Of a stretch of 64,000 nucleotides of DNA, positions 2 through 32,006 are shown piece by piece. The notes beneath the pieces were generated by a model that had not been told where the DNA came from, did no database searches, and saw nothing but the letters and a program-made list of their open reading frames with translations. A program made the position numbers and the translations under genes. Numbering within the stretch: the stretch's first letter is position 1; each line of letters starts with the position of its first letter. The DNA lies in IMG/VR virus record IMGVR_UViG_3300027777_000001, positions 10,080 through 74,079 of that record, one strand, 5' to 3'. Origin of the DNA: a virus.

Positions 2-3000
2 CCGTACTTCTTGGATTACTCAGTGTGGAAACAACACCGAGTCGGAATTGCGACGAATGGCTTTAACCCTAACTCGAGTAAAGCTCAGCGTCAACAGTCG
101 TACCAGCCTGATTGGGAAACCAAGATTGATAGGAATGACTCTGCACAAATGGATAATTTCTATTTGGGAGTTGCAGAGGGTTTTGGTATTGCAACAGACA
201 ATGTTCCAAATGCAGTAAGCCTCGTAACAATCAAAGATCGGTTTGCACAGGCCGATGTAGTAGAGGCGGTCGAGATATTGCGTCAACGTATGGTTAGTGT
301 TGATCCAGAACCGTTTACCGATGCTGAGCAACAGAAGATAGTTTCACTGGTTAAGAAAGGCAAAGAGAATCTTCATTCTCTGAATTCATTAATTGCTTTG
401 GCTCATTTCTCTGAAGCGGTTAAGACTAATTCAGATACATTCACGGTTCAGATCCCCGCAGAGCGTGATGGTAAGACGAATGGCCCAATGCTGGCTAATG
501 CCTTCTTTGGTGTGGGATCAAGCCCTGCAGAGCTCTTTAAGACCCTCAATCGTGGGGGATTCTTTGAAGTCGGTAATCCAGATACACAGTTCAATATCTG
601 GAAAGGTAAAGGCAATCTAGACCTGTACGAAAAAGGTACAGGGAATTTGCTTAGGACTCTTCAATGGTTGATCACAGAAAAGAAAGTCTTTGGTTTTATT
701 AAGGATACCGTTCAGGTATTCACCAAGAGTTTGACCGACCCTAAAACAGGGGGTGTCAATTCTGTCGGTCGAAACATGATGAAGAAGCCTACCCAAGAGG
801 TGGTCTATGGCTCGTCTTCTAAAACCACCGTGGATAACATGGCACAGGTTTTCATTGAAAGCGTCTACGCCCGTATCGAGGAAGTGGCTAAAGACGATCT
901 CTCTCACATGACGTTGGCTAAGTTGATCAAAGAATTAAACAGTCTTTTGTACGGAACAGACACAAAGTTTAACTCGAACGATACCGCACAAACAATCTTG
1001 GATAAAGACTTCAGTAGTGCGGATATAGCAGCAATGAAGGACAAGTTTATAAAGACTCTTGGCAAAGCAGTCAAAGAGACTGTGAAGAGTGACTTCCATG
1101 CATTCACATTTAGGACACAGATCTTTACAGCCACAGCTGGCTTGACCTTTTCAATCTATAAGGCAGTCTACGATACGGCTCGCAAAGACTACATCAAGGA
1201 GCTGACTGAGCTTGGGGAATTTGATGTTAATCCCGCCTTTGAACGTAGGGGTAAGAATGGGAAAATGTCTCAAATCTCTGCTAGGCAAACACACGATTTG
1301 AATGCTGCTCAGGAAAAGGTATTAAAAGAACGTGTCTTAGCAGTCTACCCAATCGTACATAGTTTGTTCTCTAAAGAAAGCAATCAACTAGAGGCAGGAT
1401 TGTTTATTAGTAAGACTGAAAGAAAGTTATCAAAAGATCCAAACTACCAAGTTGAAGTCCAATTTGGAACCCAAATTAAAGATTTGGGTAGATCCCGCGT
1501 CAACATGGCTGCAATGCAAACCAACCAAGTGGGCCCTGGTGTAGCAATGTTGCCTAACTTAATTCAGGCTTCAGATAGTTATATCTCGCATTCAGTACAG
1601 GCTGCGATGAATGCGCTTAACCAACATGATGCATTGATTACAGGGCTTGGAAAGACTAAAGAAACTGCACAGCTTCTTAATGCTGCTACGTGGAAACTGT
1701 TATTGAACTATTCCCCAGCCACAGAAATGTACGAGGCATTCGTACGTAACATTCTGGGTATGGAAAGTATGCTTGCCAAGAAGGAAGTCTCTAAAGATGT
1801 ACTAGCCCTCTTTGCTGCATCTATTGTCGAGCAGACTTACCGCTTTAATGGGCCAGATACGGATGTGCCAATTGATCCCCATGAGTTTCTAGGGATCCAT
1901 TTAGCCCTGATGAAGAATATGTCTTTTCGTGCTGACAGTATGAAGTTCTCTACTTTGGGTCTGACAGCATCAATTGACCAGTACACTTTTGAGGGTGGAA
2001 ACTTTGCAGTGGATGAGAAGTTACGAGAAGCGGCTCTAGCCAAGAAAGCTGAGCTGGTCTCTGAGATTGATCCTGAGACACAAGCTGCTGTTGATAGTCT
2101 TGAACAACGTCTCCAAACTGCGATCACTGCAGCAACAATCGCTGCGAATAAAAAGATTGCTCAGACTCTCAATATTGAACTCGATCCTGAAGGATATGGC
2201 GTAACTGAACAACAGTTGGAAGACCTGCGTACAGAGAGCCGAGAAGATGCAAGTATCAACGACACGGTTGCTGACCATTTAACTAACGCCCAAGCCTTTG
2301 CCTTACTCTCACACGCAGTCAAGGATAAGTCTTTGGGCGAGACTGTTGTTGAGATGCTTAAAGAGGTCATGACTAAGTTGCGAGAATCCAAGGGTGCCAT
2401 GAACTTGGTGACAGCCTTAAAGGTCTTACAGCCTGCTAACCGTGCAGAGATTGCTCAGTTACTCATGGATCGAGCCAGTAAGATTCCTGCTAACTTGTGG
2501 GGTATTCAAGGTACGCCAGACATTAAGAGTGAGGCTCACTGGGTAGACTTCTTTGAGAAACGGGGCAATGTTAAAGGCGAACAATTGGTTCGTGCTTTAA
2601 AAGATAGGTTGATTGAGCAAGGTGGCCCAAGTAACGTCAAAGACTTCAATTTGGAGATGCTTAACCGGATCAGTAAGTTGATTAGCCCAACGCTTACCAT
2701 TCGTTATGTCACGCCATTCACAGCACCTAGCCAAGTTATCCAGCAGGCCAAAGACAACGCACGGGCTTGGTACATTGCCACAACCGATGGTGTGGATACG
2801 ATCTACATTCTCTCTACAGACTTTAAACACTCTGGCTTAACCACGGAAACCCTCCTGCATGAGATTCTCCACAGTGCTGTAGCTCGAACCATTAAGTCTG
2901 AGCAAGATGCACGGAAAAGGAATCCAACCCGTAAGACTCCATTACTTGCCATCATCGATGACTTGGAGCTTCTTCGTTATTTGGCTAAGAAACATATCGA

Positions 3001-6000
3001 TGCTGACCCAGAGTTAGCCGCTAAATACGGGCCAGCAGTCAGTAGCATCGATGAGCTTATTGCTTGGGGAATGACAAACACAGCCTTCCAACAAGAAGTC
3101 TTAAACAAGATGCAAGGGGTTCCTTCTCGCACCAACAACAATGCAATCACTGGTTTAAAAGCCATGATTAATGCATTGGTCGCAATCCTGTTTAAGAAAA
3201 CAGAAGGTCGTGAGGCAGAGATTCTTGGTTCTGGTTTAAGTATCTTGATTACTAACGTGTCTGATTTATTTACTGAGGCCGAGAACAAGCAAAGCCAGAC
3301 CATTAACGAAACCCTGAATCGAAGCCAAACCCATACGGCTCCAGATCCAGCTTTCTATACCACCGCAGAGATATACGATTCCTTGGCAGGAGTCTCTCCC
3401 GCACCCCTAGCTTTTGATAGCCAGCTGCGAGACCTACTCAGCGGGATCGTCAATAAGCTGCATGGCACAGCGGGAGTCTTGCATGAATCCTTAATGGATC
3501 GTCAAGCCTTATCTGCTCAAGACGTATACCTCAAAGCACTGGCTACAGGACAAGCCCCCTTTGCATCAGCCACCATTGCCTCTGGCTTTCAGTTCAGCCA
3601 ACAGGAAGGGTTCGTCATCGAGCAGGTTGAGGCCACAGTCAGAGCAGCGATTGATCGTAATGAGAATACCCAGAGCTTTGCCTACAAAGGCTTGGATGCT
3701 CTGTACAACGAAGCCAAAGCGAACCTTGCGCCTAAGGACTTCCATCAGGGTGACTGGAACACAGCCACGCAGGTAGAGAAGGATACAGCCCAAGAGTTGT
3801 ATGACTTCTTATTTGTCATGGCTAAGGCTCTACCAAGCACCAACCCATCAACCGCAGGAAATACACATGCTAATTCAGATCGATTAGCCCATCTCAGCAG
3901 ATTCGCTGCAATGGGTCTTGCCCATGAAGGGGTTAATAAGCTCCTGCAGGGCATGACAGGATCTGGGCTGACTACCACGGCTACCCCTGCACCAACGAGC
4001 TTTCTAGCCCGTCTGAAGGCCTTGTTTGATCAGATCTTGGCTTGGTTCAGTGACAAGCAGACTGGAATCAAACCGGGTGACAAACCTGATGCCAGGTTAG
4101 AGAAATTAGTTGATACCTTGGTTGGGATTGAAGCTAAGAAACGTGCTGCAGCCATGGCTCGACAAAATGCTCTGTTCACAGGTCTACAGAATGTGTCCAA
4201 TAATGTTCTTAACGCGGCTAACACGGGTATCAATAAAGTAGGGGCAGCCGCCGCAAGAAGCAACAATGGGGCAGTGAAAGGCGTAGGGTTTGTGATTAAC
4301 GCGGTCTCTGGAGGTAGGGTTAACCAGATCATTAATAATGGCATGAACTACTACGCTACATTGAATGGTGGTAAGCCAGACCTCTTCACAGATACTGTGG
4401 CTTATGTGCGTGGGCCAACGTCTCAGATGGAGGAGTTGTTCCGTATGGGTAAGAAGCTAGAAGCGGATCGTCGAGCATTCATCGACAACACAGCTACGCT
4501 TCTCTTGGCTGCATATCGTAATGGTGGGCAGGATCTGACACAGATCCAGAAGAAAGCCATTACTTCCTTGGTACGTTCTGATGCCCAGTCACTCTTAGCA
4601 GCAGGCTACACCATGGCTCAGTTAGCTGAGTTCTTGGGCAACGGGACACAACGCCAAGACGAGATTACGAAGCTTGAAGATAGTCTGAAATCCTTACATC
4701 CCCAGTTCTATAAACAGTTCTTGGGTCAATCCAAGCAACTTGCATTCATCTTGGCTAATGGAAAAGCCACGCATGAGAACTCTATGCTGAACGCTTTGAA
4801 TATTGCACGGATGTACAACACACCCACAATGGGTCAGTTAACCGTAGCAGAAGAGGCTGCAGTCCAAGCCTTGGTAGATCCCTTGGTGTCTCTCTGGGCG
4901 ATTGAGTATTCACCCACAGTGCTTCGTGAGACATCCAGAGATGTGTTGCTCGATGAGTCAGCACGCTCCAATGGTGAGAACGGGATTGCCGCAACCCTTG
5001 CCATGCACGCACACTTACTCAAAGATTCAAAAGATAAGCTCTTTGATGGCAGCGAGGTATTGCGTACCAAGGGCTATTTACCAGAGGTATATAACCCAAG
5101 AACAGACATCCAAGTAGCAGGTGATGTCGAGGGTCGGAACTTAATTGACAAGGGCTACTCAGTGGGGGGTGTTTTGCCCAAAGATCCTAATGACCCCGAT
5201 CCTCAGACCGTAAAAAAATTGTATGTACGTGAGGACTCAGGGATGGTGGCTCATGTTACAGGGATGATTTCCTTGAAAGACATGAAAGCTAAAGGCTCTG
5301 CTCAGATTGGAAAAGAACGTAGGTTCTATAAACCTAAGGGAGATTGGAATGCCAGTGAAGTCGTAAGAGTCACTGGATCTCAAAGAAACGCCATTGCTTG
5401 GATGGCTCAAAATGGCGATACATTTGATCCACGAAACGTCACTGGGACGTTCATGATTCCTACACTAACAAGCGAAGGGGATATTTCTAACTATCGCTAT
5501 GAAATGAGCCATGCCCGTAAGGATTCAATCCTCGAGCGAAACAATAACTTTGAACACGTACTTGGGGTATTTGCTGGCAACACATTCGATAAGATTACCT
5601 CTGCCCAACATAACGCTAAGGTTATTCAAGCCTTGCATGACCACTACTCAGTGGACTATGCAGGACGGTCTGTGTCATACGTAGAAGTAGGCCCTAATAG
5701 CCGAGACCCAGCCATGCGGGAAGTCTACCGCTTGCTTCCTGAGGCCACAAAGAAGGAGATAAGAAGAGTGTGGGGAACGGAAGCCATGCTGGTTAGAAAC
5801 GACATGATGAATCTGACATTTGGGTATAGGAAATTTAGCCTGTCCGAGATGTTTGATAAAGACCCTTCTACAAGGAATGCTTATGAAGATCTGTTTGTCT
5901 CGATTGCTACCTTTGTCGTAGCAGGGTACGCTAGACTGCAACTTGGAATGGATCCAGCCCAAGCCATGCAGTATGCCAAGCGTACAGGGGTGATTGTTAA

Positions 6001-6916
6001 ACGAGCCGAGGATGCGTGGAAGACCATCTCTGATGAAACCAAGAATGCGATTGTGGTTAAGACTGGAATCGTGATGATGGGTAATGTCTGGAGTAATGCC
6101 ACGCTCTTAATGATGCACGATATCTCATTGGTGGATATTGCTAAGCACCATAAGACAGCATTTACCGCAGCCCGAGAGTATCAAGAGGTGAGCGAGGAGT
6201 TGTTTAAAGCTCAGACTCAATTGGATACTAACTACAACGTGGGTAATAGGAAAGCTTTAGAACAACGGATCTTAGTCCTAAAAGACAAGATCGCCCGTAA
6301 CCCAGTGACCGAACTTATGGACTCTGGCTTGATGCCTACCATCGTGCAAGACGTTAACATTAAGGATGACACATACGCTTATGACTCTAACTTTGTGAAG
6401 AACATTAAGGCTAATGTTGCTTCCCTTAATCCAACAGTCTTAAACATCGGTAAGCAGCTCTACATGACTAAGGACACGCCACACTACAAGATGTTGGCTA
6501 ACCTGACCCAGATGAGTGACTTCGTGGCTCGATACACTTTGTATCAACACTTGACCACAAAGAGCCAAGACCCCTTGAGCAAGAAAGAAGCTGCACGGGT
6601 ATCTTCTGAATCCTTTGTGAACTACGACATCCCGCTGCCTAAAGGTATCCAGTATCTAGATGACATCGGGATCTTGCCATTTACCAAGTACTTCTTATCG
6701 ATGCAAAGAGTGTTGGCTTCCTTGGTTCGAGAACATCCCGTAAAGGTGCTGATGACCTTGATGGGCAATAACTATTTAAACTTAATGCCAACAGTGATGG
6801 ATGGGTCAGCGTTTAGTCGCTTTGGGAATAACCCGTTTAGGTCAGGGCCATTACGATTCATTGGTGCGGTAGAACACATCCTACCCATCAAGTATGCGAT
6901 GGGGTTATTCAGGTAA
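2..6916 (+). CDS. Virion-encapsidated RNA polymerase (N4 gp50-like vRNAP), 5'-truncated by window edge
   Basis: >2300-aa ORF open from window start; T7-family motif A (ERDGKTNG), motif B (RNMMKKPTQEVVYG = Rx3Kx7YG), motif C (QHDA); no cysteine found, as in N4 vRNAP. Confidence 0.95.
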   Translation, partial: PYFLDYSVWKQHRVGIATNGFNPNSSKAQRQQSYQPDWETKIDRNDSAQMDNFYLGVAEGFGIATDNVPNAVSLVTIKDRFAQADVVEAVEILRQRMVSVDPEPFTDAEQQKIVSLVKKGKENLHSLNSLIALAHFSEAVKTNSDTFTVQIPAERDGKTNGPMLANAFFGVGSSPAELFKTLNRGGFFEVGNPDTQFNIWKGKGNLDLYEKGTGNLLRTLQWLITEKKVFGFIKDTVQVFTKSLTDPKTGGVNSVGRNMMKKPTQEVVYGSSSKTTVDNMAQVFIESVYARIEEVAKDDLSHMTLAKLIKELNSLLYGTDTKFNSNDTAQTILDKDFSSADIAAMKDKFIKTLGKAVKETVKSDFHAFTFRTQIFTATAGLTFSIYKAVYDTARKDYIKELTELGEFDVNPAFERRGKNGKMSQISARQTHDLNAAQEKVLKERVLAVYPIVHSLFSKESNQLEAGLFISKTERKLSKDPNYQVEVQFGTQIKDLGRSRVNMAAMQTNQVGPGVAMLPNLIQASDSYISHSVQAAMNALNQHDALITGLGKTKETAQLLNAATWKLLLNYSPATEMYEAFVRNILGMESMLAKKEVSKDVLALFAASIVEQTYRFNGPDTDVPIDPHEFLGIHLALMKNMSFRADSMKFSTLGLTASIDQYTFEGGNFAVDEKLREAALAKKAELVSEIDPETQAAVDSLEQRLQTAITAATIAANKKIAQTLNIELDPEGYGVTEQQLEDLRTESREDASINDTVADHLTNAQAFALLSHAVKDKSLGETVVEMLKEVMTKLRESKGAMNLVTALKVLQPANRAEIAQLLMDRASKIPANLWGIQGTPDIKSEAHWVDFFEKRGNVKGEQLVRALKDRLIEQGGPSNVKDFNLEMLNRISKLISPTLTIRYVTPFTAPSQVIQQAKDNARAWYIATTDGVDTIYILSTDFKHSGLTTETLLHEILHSAVARTIKSEQDARKRNPTRKTPLLAIIDDLELLRYLAKKHIDADPELAAKYGPAVSSIDELIAWGMTNTAFQQEVLNKMQGVPSRTNNNAITGLKAMINALVAILFKKTEGREAEILGSGLSILITNVSDLFTEAENKQSQTINETLNRSQTHTAPDPAFYTTAEIYDSLAGVSPAPLAFDSQLRDLLSGIVNKLHGTAGVLHESLMDRQALSAQDVYLKALATGQAPFASATIASGFQFSQQEGFVIEQVEATVRAAIDRNENTQSFAYKGLDALYNEAKANLAPKDFHQGDWNTATQVEKDTAQELYDFLFVMAKALPSTNPSTAGNTHANSDRLAHLSRFAAMGLAHEGVNKLLQGMTGSGLTTTATPAPTSFLARLKALFDQILAWFSDKQTGIKPGDKPDARLEKLVDTLVGIEAKKRAAAMARQNALFTGLQNVSNNVLNAANTGINKVGAAAARSNNGAVKGVGFVINAVSGGRVNQIINNGMNYYATLNGGKPDLFTDTVAYVRGPTSQMEELFRMGKKLEADRRAFIDNTATLLLAAYRNGGQDLTQIQKKAITSLVRSDAQSLLAAGYTMAQLAEFLGNGTQRQDEITKLEDSLKSLHPQFYKQFLGQSKQLAFILANGKATHENSMLNALNIARMYNTPTMGQLTVAEEAAVQALVDPLVSLWAIEYSPTVLRETSRDVLLDESARSNGENGIAATLAMHAHLLKDSKDKLFDGSEVLRTKGYLPEVYNPRTDIQVAGDVEGRNLIDKGYSVGGVLPKDPNDPDPQTVKKLYVREDSGMVAHVTGMISLKDMKAKGSAQIGKERRFYKPKGDWNASEVVRVTGSQRNAIAWMAQNGDTFDPRNVTGTFMIPTLTSEGDISNYRYEMSHARKDSILERNNNFEHVLGVFAGNTFDKITSAQHNAKVIQALHDHYSVDYAGRSVSYVEVGPNSRDPAMREVYRLLPEATKKEIRRVWGTEAMLVRNDMMNLTFGYRKFSLSEMFDKDPSTRNAYEDLFVSIATFVVAGYARLQLGMDPAQAMQYAKRTGVIVKRAEDAWKTISDETKNAIVVKTGIVMMGNVWSNATLLMMHDISLVDIAKHHKTAFTAAREYQEVSEELFKAQTQLDTNYNVGNRKALEQRILVLKDKIARNPVTELMDSGLMPTIVQDVNIKDDTYAYDSNFVKNIKANVASLNPTVLNIGKQLYMTKDTPHYKMLANLTQMSDFVARYTLYQHLTTKSQDPLSKKEAARVSSESFVNYDIPLPKGIQYLDDIGILPFTKYFLSMQRVLASLVREHPVKVLMTLMGNNYLNLMPTVMDGSAFSRFGNNPFRSGPLRFIGAVEHILPIKYAMGLFR

Positions 6917-28449: not shown

Positions 28450-28939
28450 GATTTTTATCATTGGCTGTGGGATTGCCTTTGTTTCCGGCACAACCCTATC
28501 TTGGTGGCTGACTGCCGACTACAAGAATGCCAAGTTTGCAGAGACGATCTCCACCATTCGACTAGACGCTGCAGAAGCTGTACGTCTAGCAACGAATAAG
28601 GCTCGATCTATTGATGCAGAAAACTCCCGTATCGCAACCGAATTAGAGGTGGCTCATAATGAATTTAGACAGAATCTTGATACCGTTAAAGCTGACAATG
28701 CTCGTCTTGTTAGTGAGCTTGGGGGCTTGTACGACAGTCACGCCGCCGCAAGTAATAGCAACGTGCCCAGTTCCACCACCCCCTCCAGCAGCGCTCCTGT
28801 CGCCCCCACCACAGGCAAACTTTCAAGAGAACTTACGCAGCTACTTCTTTCCGAATCAGCAAGGGCAGACGAAGCTGCAGCCTACGCCCGTACCTGCTAC
28901 GACTTTTTCCAAGTAAGGAAGAACAATGTACCTAACTAA
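28436..28939 (+). CDS. Inner-membrane spanin (Rz-like)
   Basis: N-terminal TM, coiled-coil, C-terminal RADE...C; contains embedded lipoprotein ORF. Confidence 0.75.
   Translation: MFDIKIFIIGCGIAFVSGTTLSWWLTADYKNAKFAETISTIRLDAAEAVRLATNKARSIDAENSRIATELEVAHNEFRQNLDTVKADNARLVSELGGLYDSHAAASNSNVPSSTTPSSSAPVAPTTGKLSRELTQLLLSESARADEAAAYARTCYDFFQVRKNNVPN
28659..28916 (+). CDS. Outer-membrane spanin (Rz1-like lipoprotein), embedded in +1 frame
   Basis: Lipobox LGAC, Pro-rich CPVPPPPPAALL. Confidence 0.75.
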   Translation: MNLDRILIPLKLTMLVLLVSLGACTTVTPPQVIATCPVPPPPPAALLSPPPQANFQENLRSYFFPNQQGQTKLQPTPVPATTFSK

Positions 28940-29543
28940 AGAAATGTTAGTAGCAGCAGATCTATGTAGCACAGCCAATGCAGCCTTGTATGAAGCTCCA
29001 CTCAATAACGTGTGTACTCGTTATGAGATCAATACTCCGTTAAGAATGGCAGGGTTCTTGTCTCAAATTGCACATGAATCTGGAGGCTTTACAGCTACGG
29101 TAGAAAACCTCTATTACCAAGCCTCAGCATTGAACCGGAGCTGGCCTCAGTTATTCCCTGGGGATGTGGCTCAACAGTACGCCATGCAGCCTGAGAGGAT
29201 TGCAAATAGAGCTTACGGGAACCGTATGGGTAACGGAGACGAAGCCAGTGGGGAGGGGTGGTTGTACAGAGGTCGGGGTCTTATTCAGCTGACTGGCAAA
29301 AATCAGTATCTCAATTTTGCTATGTCTGAGGATGTAGATACCTTGGTTCATCCTGAACTAGTCGAGCTTCCAGAGTTGGCTGCAATGTCTGCAGGATGGT
29401 TCTGGCACACCAATGACTTGAATACTCTGGCTGATTTGGGCTATGTAGAAGCCATGACCAGACGTATTAATGGAGGATTGAATGGGCTGGCTGATCGCCA
29501 AGCTAAGTACAACGCAGTCTTAAAAGTCTTAGCTTGGGAGTAG
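28926..29543 (+). CDS. Glycoside hydrolase family 19 endolysin
   Basis: FLSQIAHESG, YRGRGLIQLTG, TRRINGGLNGL.DR. Confidence 0.9.
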   Translation: MYLTKEMLVAADLCSTANAALYEAPLNNVCTRYEINTPLRMAGFLSQIAHESGGFTATVENLYYQASALNRSWPQLFPGDVAQQYAMQPERIANRAYGNRMGNGDEASGEGWLYRGRGLIQLTGKNQYLNFAMSEDVDTLVHPELVELPELAAMSAGWFWHTNDLNTLADLGYVEAMTRRINGGLNGLADRQAKYNAVLKVLAWE

Positions 29544-29547
29544 AACC

Positions 29548-29829
29548 ATGAAGATCTTGTTTGGATTACTGGTATTGCTTGGTTTAAATGTCTCAGCAGA
29601 GACGCTAGATAAGCCCGTACGGTGTGCATCCCTTGAGACCGTACAAGAGAAGATGAAAGAGTTTGGTGAGAGCGTACTCTGGACATCCCCAAGTGTCCTT
29701 GAGGAGTCTGATTACGCTTTCTACGGTAACCGTGAGACAGGCTCATGGTCACTGGTTCAGATCATTCATGGGATCGGTTGCTTGGTAGCTTTCGGTGAAG
29801 CAGGTAAGCAAGTCCGAGCAGGATCTTGA
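29548..29829 (+). CDS. Secreted hypothetical protein
   Basis: Signal peptide MKILFGLLVLLGLNVSA, two Cys. Confidence 0.7.
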   Translation: MKILFGLLVLLGLNVSAETLDKPVRCASLETVQEKMKEFGESVLWTSPSVLEESDYAFYGNRETGSWSLVQIIHGIGCLVAFGEAGKQVRAGS

Positions 29830-29900
29830 TTAGTCTGTGTGAATTGCGTGTGAATCCTGTGTGAATTCACACACCGCTTGGTACCGTTTAGTGGGGGTAG

Positions 29901-29940
29901 AAAAGAAAAACCGCTGTGCCTTCAAGGGGCTACAGCGGTT
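29901..29940 (-). terminator. Intrinsic terminator downstream of att core
   Basis: aaccgctgt...acagcggtt inverted repeat followed by U-rich tract on - strand. Confidence 0.7.
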
Positions 29941-29955
29941 AAAAGCGGTTTGTAA

Positions 29956-29981
29956 TGGTGGAGCCGGGGGGAATTGAACCC
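29956..29981 (-). other. att core: 3'-terminal fragment of tmRNA (ssrA) or tRNA-Ala
   Basis: Minus strand GGGTTCAATTCCCCCCGGCTCCACCA = T-loop, T-stem 3' side, alanyl-type acceptor strand and CCA; no 5' half present. Confidence 0.85.
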
Positions 29982-30067
29982 TGCGGTGATTTACCTGTTT
30001 ATGCGGGTCTCGAGCCAGTAAAACCTAATCTGTGTGAATTCTGTGTGAATTCATTTTGAGAAGGGTT

Positions 30068-31285
30068 TTACGCCTCATTTCCATAGGCACTAGGCAAGGA
30101 TTTCTGAAAGTTCTTGGGTATCCATTTGCCATATCTCTTGAACACCATCTCGGCATCCACATGACCCATCTGCTGAGCCAACCAGAAAGGGTTAGCACCA
30201 TTGGTCAGTAAAGTCGATGCGTAAGTATGCCTGATTTGGTAGAGGTTACGGTAGCGGATCTTAGAGCGTTCAAACAAAGGTTCCCAAAAGGTACGAACGA
30301 TCTGCTGTTCTCGAGCCCATGGTTGACCGGATCGAGGGTTCATCCAGACTCTGCCATTGTCCTCATGCTCAAGCTCTTGTTGCTGAGCCAGTGCCTCAAT
30401 CGCTGAGACATTCAGATCAATCTCGCGGGCTCCTGAAGAGGTCTTAGGAGCTTTCTCAAACTGTCCCACCACATCCCCACGCCTGCCTGTGACCTCGTTG
30501 GTCGAGATCCTGACAAGCTTCTTATCCATGTCGATTGACTCCCAACGCAGAGCAATAAACTCTCCTGGTCGCAATCCTGTGGCAAACCAGAACTGAAGGG
30601 TAGAGCGTTCGTCTGACCGACAAGCTTTAAGTAAAGCTGCAACCTCTTCATGGTCAAAGGGTTCAATGGCTCCACGTTTGGACTTGGTGCTGGTCTGGCT
30701 AAGTAGCTTCTTGAGTGCAACATTATCCAATGGATTGGATTCAATCAAGTCATCGTTCAGAGCATCCTCTAGTGCTGATCGAAGTGGGGTAAGCCTGTTC
30801 CTTACGGTCTTGGCAGTTACCCCAAGCCCAGCAATCCATGTTCTTAATACAGGTGCTGTCAGTTCGTTGATCGGTAGCTTGTCAAAAGCAGGGATCAAGA
30901 TCGAGTTAATGATCTTGTAATAGCCCTGATATGACGAAGGTGACAACGTATCGTTCTCAGTCTGCTTGTCATAGATCCCAAGCTGAGCCCTAAGTAAATC
31001 ACCAATGGTTCGTTTGTGGATAACCTTGACTACACCCTTAGTGACCTTGGGTGAGTCAGGGAAATACTTAGCGTATTCAAACGTACCATCAGCAATCTTT
31101 CGACGGATTTCACTTCTCAAACTAGCTGCATAATCAATGTTTGTTTTATTGATCTTGCAGACTGGTAATAACTCACGACATTGCTGACTCTCGAAACTGA
31201 ACGCAATCTGAATGCGTTGAATCTCTCGGTCAGTCCTTATTGCTATGCCAACTGGCGTTTCAGGGGAACCTGACTCTCGACCCAT
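30068..31285 (-). CDS. int: Tyrosine integrase with N-terminal arm-binding domain
   Basis: TGLRPGE (R), PKT (K), YQIRHTYAS, QMGH, RYGKW (Y); DUF3596-like N-terminus. Confidence 0.95.
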   Translation of the reverse strand: MGRESGSPETPVGIAIRTDREIQRIQIAFSFESQQCRELLPVCKINKTNIDYAASLRSEIRRKIADGTFEYAKYFPDSPKVTKGVVKVIHKRTIGDLLRAQLGIYDKQTENDTLSPSSYQGYYKIINSILIPAFDKLPINELTAPVLRTWIAGLGVTAKTVRNRLTPLRSALEDALNDDLIESNPLDNVALKKLLSQTSTKSKRGAIEPFDHEEVAALLKACRSDERSTLQFWFATGLRPGEFIALRWESIDMDKKLVRISTNEVTGRRGDVVGQFEKAPKTSSGAREIDLNVSAIEALAQQQELEHEDNGRVWMNPRSGQPWAREQQIVRTFWEPLFERSKIRYRNLYQIRHTYASTLLTNGANPFWLAQQMGHVDAEMVFKRYGKWIPKNFQKSLPSAYGNEA

Positions 31286-31446
31286 TTCTCAACCTCGGTG
31301 GGATTAATCCAAATGCTACCTTCGCGTTTGACCCACTGTACTCCTTCTGTCCATTTACGGTTTCTACGCCTTGCTCGGACAGCCTCGGAGGTATCTCCTG
31401 AGAGATCACAATACTTATTGATCTTGACCCATTTCATTGCAAGCAT
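31243..31446 (-). CDS. xis: Excisionase / recombination directionality factor
   Basis: Small basic winged-helix-like KWV...KYC..SGDT..AV......W.EG..W....IWIN...VEKWVE; overlaps int start. Confidence 0.8.
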   Translation of the reverse strand: MLAMKWVKINKYCDLSGDTSEAVRARRRNRKWTEGVQWVKREGSIWINPTEVEKWVESQVPLKRQLA

Positions 31447-31448
31447 GG

Positions 31449-31754
31449 TTATTTTCCTCGAGTGTTAGGGTTGGTACTTGAGTTAGGGTTCTGGTTTGAG
31501 TTGGTGTCAGGAGTCGTACTTGACCCTTTAGGTGCAGCAGGCTTGGCACCATCAGCAGGGGTAATGATTGAGATACCTTTGCCAGTGTTGTTGTAGATCA
31601 TGCTGGAGGTATTGTCATCGTTGATGATGAGGGAGTTCTCACCCATGGGTAAGACCATCCCACTCTTGCCCGTACGTTCATCGAAGAAGAACTGGGCTTG
31701 AACCATTGATGATGCACCAAGGCTCAAAAGTATCATTAATAGAACACGTTTCAT
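31449..31754 (-). CDS. Secreted hypothetical protein
   Basis: Signal peptide ending VQA; low-complexity C-terminus. Confidence 0.65.
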   Translation of the reverse strand: MKRVLLMILLSLGASSMVQAQFFFDERTGKSGMVLPMGENSLIINDDNTSSMIYNNTGKGISIITPADGAKPAAPKGSSTTPDTNSNQNPNSSTNPNTRGK

Positions 31755-31760
31755 TTTTAA

Positions 31761-32006
31761 CTACCTTGAAAGATTAGACAGACGCACAGCTGCACGGTGA
31801 ATCCGAGCATTGAACCAGCGTCTGATTGCGTATGATCTAGCGACTGAGATCACGGTGTAGATACCTCCCATCAATAGGTTGTCAGAAAGACTGATATGCA
31901 TATTGAAGAGAGGGAAGATCAAAAGATTGGCCACATAATTAATACTGAAACCAATGGCTACGTTGATCCAAGCCTCGATAAAGCTTCCCGTCTTAGTCTG
32001 AGACAT
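31761..32006 (-). CDS. Small two-TM protein
   Basis: Start MSQTK; S.IEA..NV.IG...RSY..RRWFN pattern. Confidence 0.7.
   Translation of the reverse strand: MSQTKTGSFIEAWINVAIGFSINYVANLLIFPLFNMHISLSDNLLMGGIYTVISVARSYAIRRWFNARIHRAAVRLSNLSR

Follow-up and report, generated by a model that had tools for sequence, protein, structure and literature searches.

Results

An attP site beside an integrase gene

A 217-bp segment of the phage genome (29835-30051) very probably forms a lambda-style, arm-dependent attP, predicted from its sequence to direct integration into the 3' terminus of ssrA, the host tmRNA gene, which would be rebuilt in the process. It lies in a 64-kb window comprising bases 10080-74079 of a 74,079 bp virus record with direct terminal repeats, and the positions given are those of the window unless a contig is named. 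Read on the minus strand, a 405-aa tyrosine integrase gene (Int, 30068-31285) is followed by two tandem repeats (30051-30030), a 48-nt spacer and a 26-nt core located 86 nt downstream of the integrase gene. Beyond the core come 15 nt, a hairpin with a T-rich tail (29940-29900), a 26-nt spacer, then a palindrome with three tandem repeats (29873-29835), after which the end of a convergent lysis cassette is reached. ARAGORN finds neither a tRNA nor a tmRNA gene in the window, a tmRNA model search of the whole phage genome shows that a full tmRNA gene is absent, and a megablast of 28500-32000 against cultured phages returned zero matches.

The integrase matches the Pfam families Arm-DNA-bind_2 (PF12167, 5e-20, residues 13-79) and Phage_integrase (PF00589, 1.5e-17), together with a SAM-like domain (5e-7) and the PHROG integrase family (7.5e-51), and its translation shows the Arg, Lys, Arg-His, His and Tyr motifs. 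An adjacent catalytic recombinase, an arm-type domain at its N-terminus and repeats on both sides that are distinct from the core, three features that mark an arm-dependent attP, are found here. Overlapping the integrase start is a candidate excisionase (Xis) of 67 aa (31243-31446, minus strand), which matches PHROG excisionase families at 2e-9 to 1e-7 and Pfam DUF1233 under the cut-off. The nearest integrase from a cultured phage, that of Ralstonia phage YO077_2, is 44% identical, and its att site is not readable because the record stops at the integrase stop codon. The lysis cassette on the other side comprises a holin, a spanin-like gene, a GH19-type endolysin and a 93-aa ORF (29548-29829, plus strand). 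This ORF, the last gene before the attP, has a signal-peptide-like N-terminus and is kept next to the attP in several relatives (60-88% amino acid identity), whilst Pfam and PHROG searches with it gave no match.

The core matches the end of tmRNA genes

The core (29956-29981, minus strand) is present as a single copy in the 74,079 bp record and corresponds to the last part of a tmRNA: it opens with base three of the 5' T-stem strand and closes with the CCA. It is composed of three G (29981-29979), a 7-nt T-loop (29978-29972), five C forming the 3' T-stem strand (29971-29967), the 7-nt 3' acceptor strand (29966-29960), the discriminator A (29959) and CCA (29958-29956), all on the minus strand. 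An earlier sequence-only reading had described just such a 26-nt core, starting 3 nt before a 7-nt loop with three G and three C placed symmetrically around it, and the element is real. That reading had proposed an exact-match search of the 26-mer against tmRNA and tRNA genes, leaving the alanyl-type end to be either tmRNA or tRNA-Ala, and had suggested a betaproteobacterial tmRNA. A scan of one genome per prokaryotic species recovered the exact 26-mer at 120 loci or more, and it forms the very 3' end of an ARAGORN-predicted tmRNA gene in at least 103 of them (103 of 120 among the matches listed, with 14 further loci cut by the locus end, three displaced fragments with no gene attached, and no case of a tRNA), which decides for tmRNA. 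Among the matches listed the carriers are nearly all Burkholderiales, that is betaproteobacteria as had been proposed, with a handful labelled as other groups; they include Achromobacter, Bordetella, Castellaniella, Paenalcaligenes, Aquabacterium, Roseateles, Ideonella, Aromatoleum and many lake and groundwater MAGs.

The limits of the shared sequence are sharp. Every host tmRNA gene compared has GGACGG as the six bases preceding the 26-mer, where the phage is unrelated, so phage and host become identical precisely from base three of the 5' T-stem strand onwards. On the 3' side it extends by up to 4 nt (TTAC), reaching 30 nt in total (to 29952) in two members of one genus. It might be argued that the resemblance to tmRNA arose by chance, or that the piece is expressed as an RNA mimic and does not serve recombination, given that Rfam scores only the 13-nt T-arm (E = 0.047, far under the gathering score). 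We regard this as having a negligible probability: 26 exact bases lie at a conserved position after the integrase gene, repeats that covary with the integrase flank them, and junctions of both types, which already contradict such an explanation, are present in genomes (see below).

Arm repeats, terminator and spacer

The P' arm (29835-29867, minus strand) consists of three tandem 11-bp arm-type repeats at 29835-29845, 29846-29856 and 29857-29867, the middle one degenerate, which read CTGTGTGAATT on the plus strand and AATTCACACAG in the orientation of the integrase and ssrA. An inverted copy at 29864-29873 pairs with the last P' repeat, and the two form a 16-bp palindrome (29858-29873) that is present too in a related contig (L135). 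The P arm (30030-30051, minus strand) holds two more tandem 11-bp repeats of arm type, at 30030-30040 and 30041-30051, between the integrase stop codon and the core. The arrangement described from the sequence alone, with three repeats on one side (the last palindromic) and two on the other, is therefore present. The exact 10-mer of the repeat occurs five times, always within 29836-30051 and nowhere else in the 64-kb window, against about 0.1 exact copies expected by chance by our own estimate. When up to one mismatch was allowed, eight repeats were found against 6.75 expected from shuffled sequence, so the signal resides in the exact, clustered copies.

Between core and P' arm lies a predicted intrinsic terminator (29900-29940, minus strand), in which a T-rich stretch comes after a hairpin on the minus strand; it would serve as the replacement terminator of the regenerated ssrA. 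The stem has an outer 9 bp (29909-29917 with 29932-29940) and an inner 3 bp, and a 96-nt piece containing it folds at -24 kcal/mol (z = -2.6). The interruption in the stem explains why the hairpin is missing from the output of a simple terminator scan. A replacement terminator after the core had been predicted by the earlier reading, and the same sequence follows the tmRNA gene in two attL junctions described below. On the other side of the core, 35 nt of the spacer (29982-30016, minus strand) are conserved among relatives, and this block is a candidate site for an accessory factor, either Xis or a host bending protein; inspection by eye showed no canonical IHF consensus in it.

Relatives share the core and differ in their repeats

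Relatives of the integrase from viral contigs were aligned on the core. Contigs with integrases 95%, 58% and 57% identical to that of this phage all share the 26-mer and the 11 nt after it, and then have a hairpin and T-run of differing sequence where this phage has its terminator. All relatives, with integrases 45-95% identical, exhibit the same layout of two repeats between integrase and core and three beyond the terminator. The repeat sequence itself differs by lineage, being of AATTCACACAG, AATTCGCACCG or AAATCGACG type, and changes with the integrase. A constant core flanked by repeats that are conserved in position and covary with the integrase is what would be expected of arm-type integrase sites. 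In this phage, 3 nt separate the start of the block identical to tmRNA from the T-loop; in relatives the distance is 3-5 nt.

Two further arrangements were seen outside this group. Contig L128 (IMGVR_UViG_3300049197_000009, 4122-4500) encodes an integrase of 40% identity, followed by two TTTCGCCAAA-type repeats, a tRNA-like 3' end and two more repeats; the tRNA-like fragment begins at a T-loop, the layout is alike and the target gene apparently different, and the target pattern is absent from 201 Burkholderiales genomes. In Castellaniella daejeonensis (L002/L123, on contig 20, and L122), an intact ssrA is found on one contig and a displaced 26-nt fragment on another. The spacer before this fragment is clearly related to the P-side spacer of this phage, no homologue of the integrase was detected with it, and a gene for an AAA_15/AbiEii-like ATPase lies nearby.

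Integrated forms and regeneration of ssrA

Both types of junction expected of an integrated element are present in relatives, where an attL with an intact ssrA and an attR with a displaced 3' fragment form the bounds. A Burkholderiaceae MAG holds two copies of the 26-mer, on separate contigs: the attL joins an intact tmRNA gene to a new terminator and three repeats, and in the attR an integrase of 45% identity is followed by two repeats, the core and a host flank with its own terminator. A search pattern for attL, made of the six host-specific bases, the core and 11 phage-specific nt, matched two contigs from lake metagenomes. The first (L132, 103 kb) contains a complete tmRNA gene, a terminator identical to that of this phage, and three repeats. 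The second (L133) joins a tmRNA 3' end to the identical terminator and three repeats, and runs on into homologues of the 93-aa ORF (88% amino acid identity) and the endolysin (93%) of this phage. The P' repeats adjoin the regenerated tmRNA gene in three attL junctions (L130, L132 and L133), whilst the P-arm pair is present in two attR junctions (L131 and L139). Along 364 nt, the L132 tmRNA shows 100% identity with the uninterrupted genes of four genomes in the genus identified below, which bears out the earlier proposal that integration regenerates the gene.

Among 55 species genomes of the host genus, one has an attR at a contig edge. There, the C-terminal end of an integrase (99% protein identity) is succeeded by the repeat pair, the spacer conserved among relatives, the core and, lastly, the flank and terminator native to ssrA in this genus. 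The rest of the prophage is not in this genome, only the junction at the contig edge, as is typical of a MAG. The attL pattern is absent from the 55 species genomes, the host-flank attR pattern is absent from viral contigs, and the searches yielded no integrated copy of the phage itself. About 4.5 kb downstream of the attR junction there is also a decayed half site that resembles an attL (L143, 1500-1630; G054:C40:4850-4974). It consists of a degenerate end of ...CACCACCA, the 11 nt of phage type, a hairpin of the terminator and two arm repeats, and is probably a scar of an earlier ssrA integration or of a deletion.

The host

The sequence-only reading had expected the attP to identify the host. 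This holds to about the level of order for the 26-mer, which does not resolve below that because at least 120 loci already match, a few of them outside the Burkholderiales; the genus came from the junction searches. Judged by their sequences, the junctions point to a single freshwater "Alcaligenaceae/Burkholderiaceae" genus as the probable host. The tmRNA of the junction contig is identical to that of four lake MAGs (Alcaligenaceae bacterium Baikal-G1, TE-Jun18-5, MiE-16apr19-156 and Kiruna2_bin-0444), and its flank is 95% identical to one of these; Burkholderiaceae bacterium GE-14 falls in the same genus. Sampled loci of host-genus genomes have 49-53% GC, close to the 45.5% of the phage. A host genus is thereby assigned to an uncultured viral genome by junction sequences and not by composition.

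An N4-like phage carries the module

The lineage of N4-like phages is usually regarded as strictly lytic. The phage described here is assigned by gene content to this lineage (Schitoviridae-type), as it carries its hallmark, a giant virion-encapsidated RNA polymerase, at 11-6916 (phrog_2206, E = 0, 1289 bits). The block from about 26.4 to 31.5 kb, which contains the integrase, Xis and attP together with a phosphoesterase and the lysis genes, is common to contig L137 (IMGVR_UViG_3300046329_000023) at 57-65% amino acid identity. As L137 encodes a tape-measure protein it belongs to a long-tailed phage, so the module looks like a mosaic that spans phages of widely differing virion type. A late structural protein links this phage to 80 other loci (41-51% identity), and not one of these carries a homologue of the integrase, or the core, within 10 kb. 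Taken together with the shared tape-measure contig, this makes the module look horizontally acquired. Since a tape-measure phage carries the same module, the integrated relatives need not be N4-like, and no N4-type genes are linked to an integration junction among the junctions found.

Discussion

Mechanism and the point of exchange

We propose that the N-terminal domain of Int binds the five direct 11-bp arm repeats, two on the integrase side and three on the far side, and we infer likewise that its core domains would bind the imperfect inverted G/C runs around the heptamer that codes for the T-loop. Int would then bring the attP into synapsis with the matching 26-30 nt that lie at the 3' end of ssrA in the host, and strand exchange would take place within this block. 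After integration, the 5' 338 nt of the host ssrA would be joined to the 26 nt borne by the phage. As read from L132, both the CCA end and U70, one half of the G3-U70 identity pair for alanine, derive from the portion that the phage contributes. With these 26 nt and a new terminator both coming from the phage, the tmRNA would stay intact. The displaced 3' fragment of the host would land beside the integrase gene, at the other end of the prophage, and Xis (31243-31446) would reverse the reaction.

The junctions confine the crossover to the 26-30 nt block and no finer, and within it we consider the 7-nt T-loop segment the likeliest point; exchange across this heptamer rather than at the 3' end of the gene is probable. 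Exchange could instead take place at the asymmetric 3' end of ssrA (the acceptor strand and CCA), with the same attP and target, which we judge rather unlikely. The identity block does run through the CCA, and in some hosts 4 nt further, sequence alone leaves the crossover unplaced inside the block, and the 3' end is an established sublocation class (Williams 2002, as summarised in bioRxiv 10.1101/2020.11.02.365908). Yet in four diverged lineages identity starts 3-5 nt before the T-loop and the phages are unrelated to tmRNA upstream of it, a sharp 5' boundary that would be expected only if the phage must supply everything 3' of the loop. Moreover, the G/C runs are symmetric around the loop, a flanking symmetry typical of core-type sites, and in phage Ms6, which has a comparable 26-bp core from T-loop to 3' end, altering the loop heptamer lowers the efficiency of integration (PMC1762012).

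Is the phage temperate?

Whether the module is used by its present carrier is a separate matter from the anatomy of the site. We consider it about an even prospect that an N4-like podovirus carrying a virion RNA polymerase lysogenises an uncultured freshwater genus of Burkholderiales by arm-dependent insertion at the T-loop of ssrA, with a module swapped with long-tailed temperate phages of the same hosts. If true, this would be the first description of lysogeny in an N4-like phage at the level of its att sites. The module could also be an unused passenger that an N4-like phage, lytic in essence, acquired by recombination from a temperate phage of conventional type and that confers no lysogeny, an explanation favoured by the stretch shared with the tape-measure contig, by the 80 structural-protein relatives that lack both integrase and core, and by junctions none of which is tied to N4-type genes. 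We think this improbable, as the integrase and xis genes are intact, the core matches the host perfectly, the five arm repeats and the terminator are preserved here and likewise in the relative with the 95% identical integrase, and the attL contig L133 has lysis genes about 90% identical to those of this phage. Furthermore, N4-like genomes bearing integrases, and proviruses of this kind, have already been reported, with freshwater among their habitats (PMC10654107).

The wider interest of the site lies in a defined attP/attB pair for a lineage usually held to be strictly lytic. The relatives constitute a natural series of integrases that share a core and differ in their arm repeats, and so offer a system for the evolution of arm specificity.

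Comparison with known systems

The site resembles the attP of lambda in spanning some 220-240 bp beside int and xis, in placing a short core shared with the host between two arms, in having five arm-type sites (2 + 3), and in being served by an integrase with a separate N-terminal arm-binding domain. It differs from lambda in that the core, which is intergenic there, is here the terminal part of an RNA gene, the two P-arm sites are adjacent, tandem and oriented as the P' sites, no site for an accessory factor was identified, and the arm domain is of the Arm-DNA-bind_2 type. Closer in its core is the attP of Ms6, of the T-loop class at tRNA-Ala, which shares with it the length of 26 nt, the extent from T-stem to acceptor end, an alanine-accepting RNA gene as target, the regeneration of that gene on integration and the implication of the T-loop heptamer in exchange. 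The target of Ms6 is a tRNA-Ala in actinobacteria whereas here it is tmRNA in Burkholderiales, and the Ms6 core ends before the CCA, which is included here (PMC1762012).

The mechanism of integration is itself textbook, as insertion into tRNA and tmRNA genes with regeneration is well known (Williams 2002, as given in summaries of that work). As in other elements that use ssrA in the Williams 2002/2003 classification, the single-copy tmRNA gene serves as attB, its displaced 3' fragment lies at the far end, and the gene is restored by sequence that the element brings (PMC3146451, PMC5148205). The examples in those two papers are islands and conventional prophages from other phyla or classes; the carrier here, in contrast, encodes an N4-type virion RNA polymerase and has an uncultured freshwater genus as its probable host. 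The N4-like genomes of PMC10654107 share with this phage the hallmark genes of lysogeny on an N4-like genome. A search of the text of that paper gave no mention of tmRNA, and att sites are undescribed in the passages of it that we consulted; the anatomy of the attP, its target gene and the junctions in relatives are defined here.
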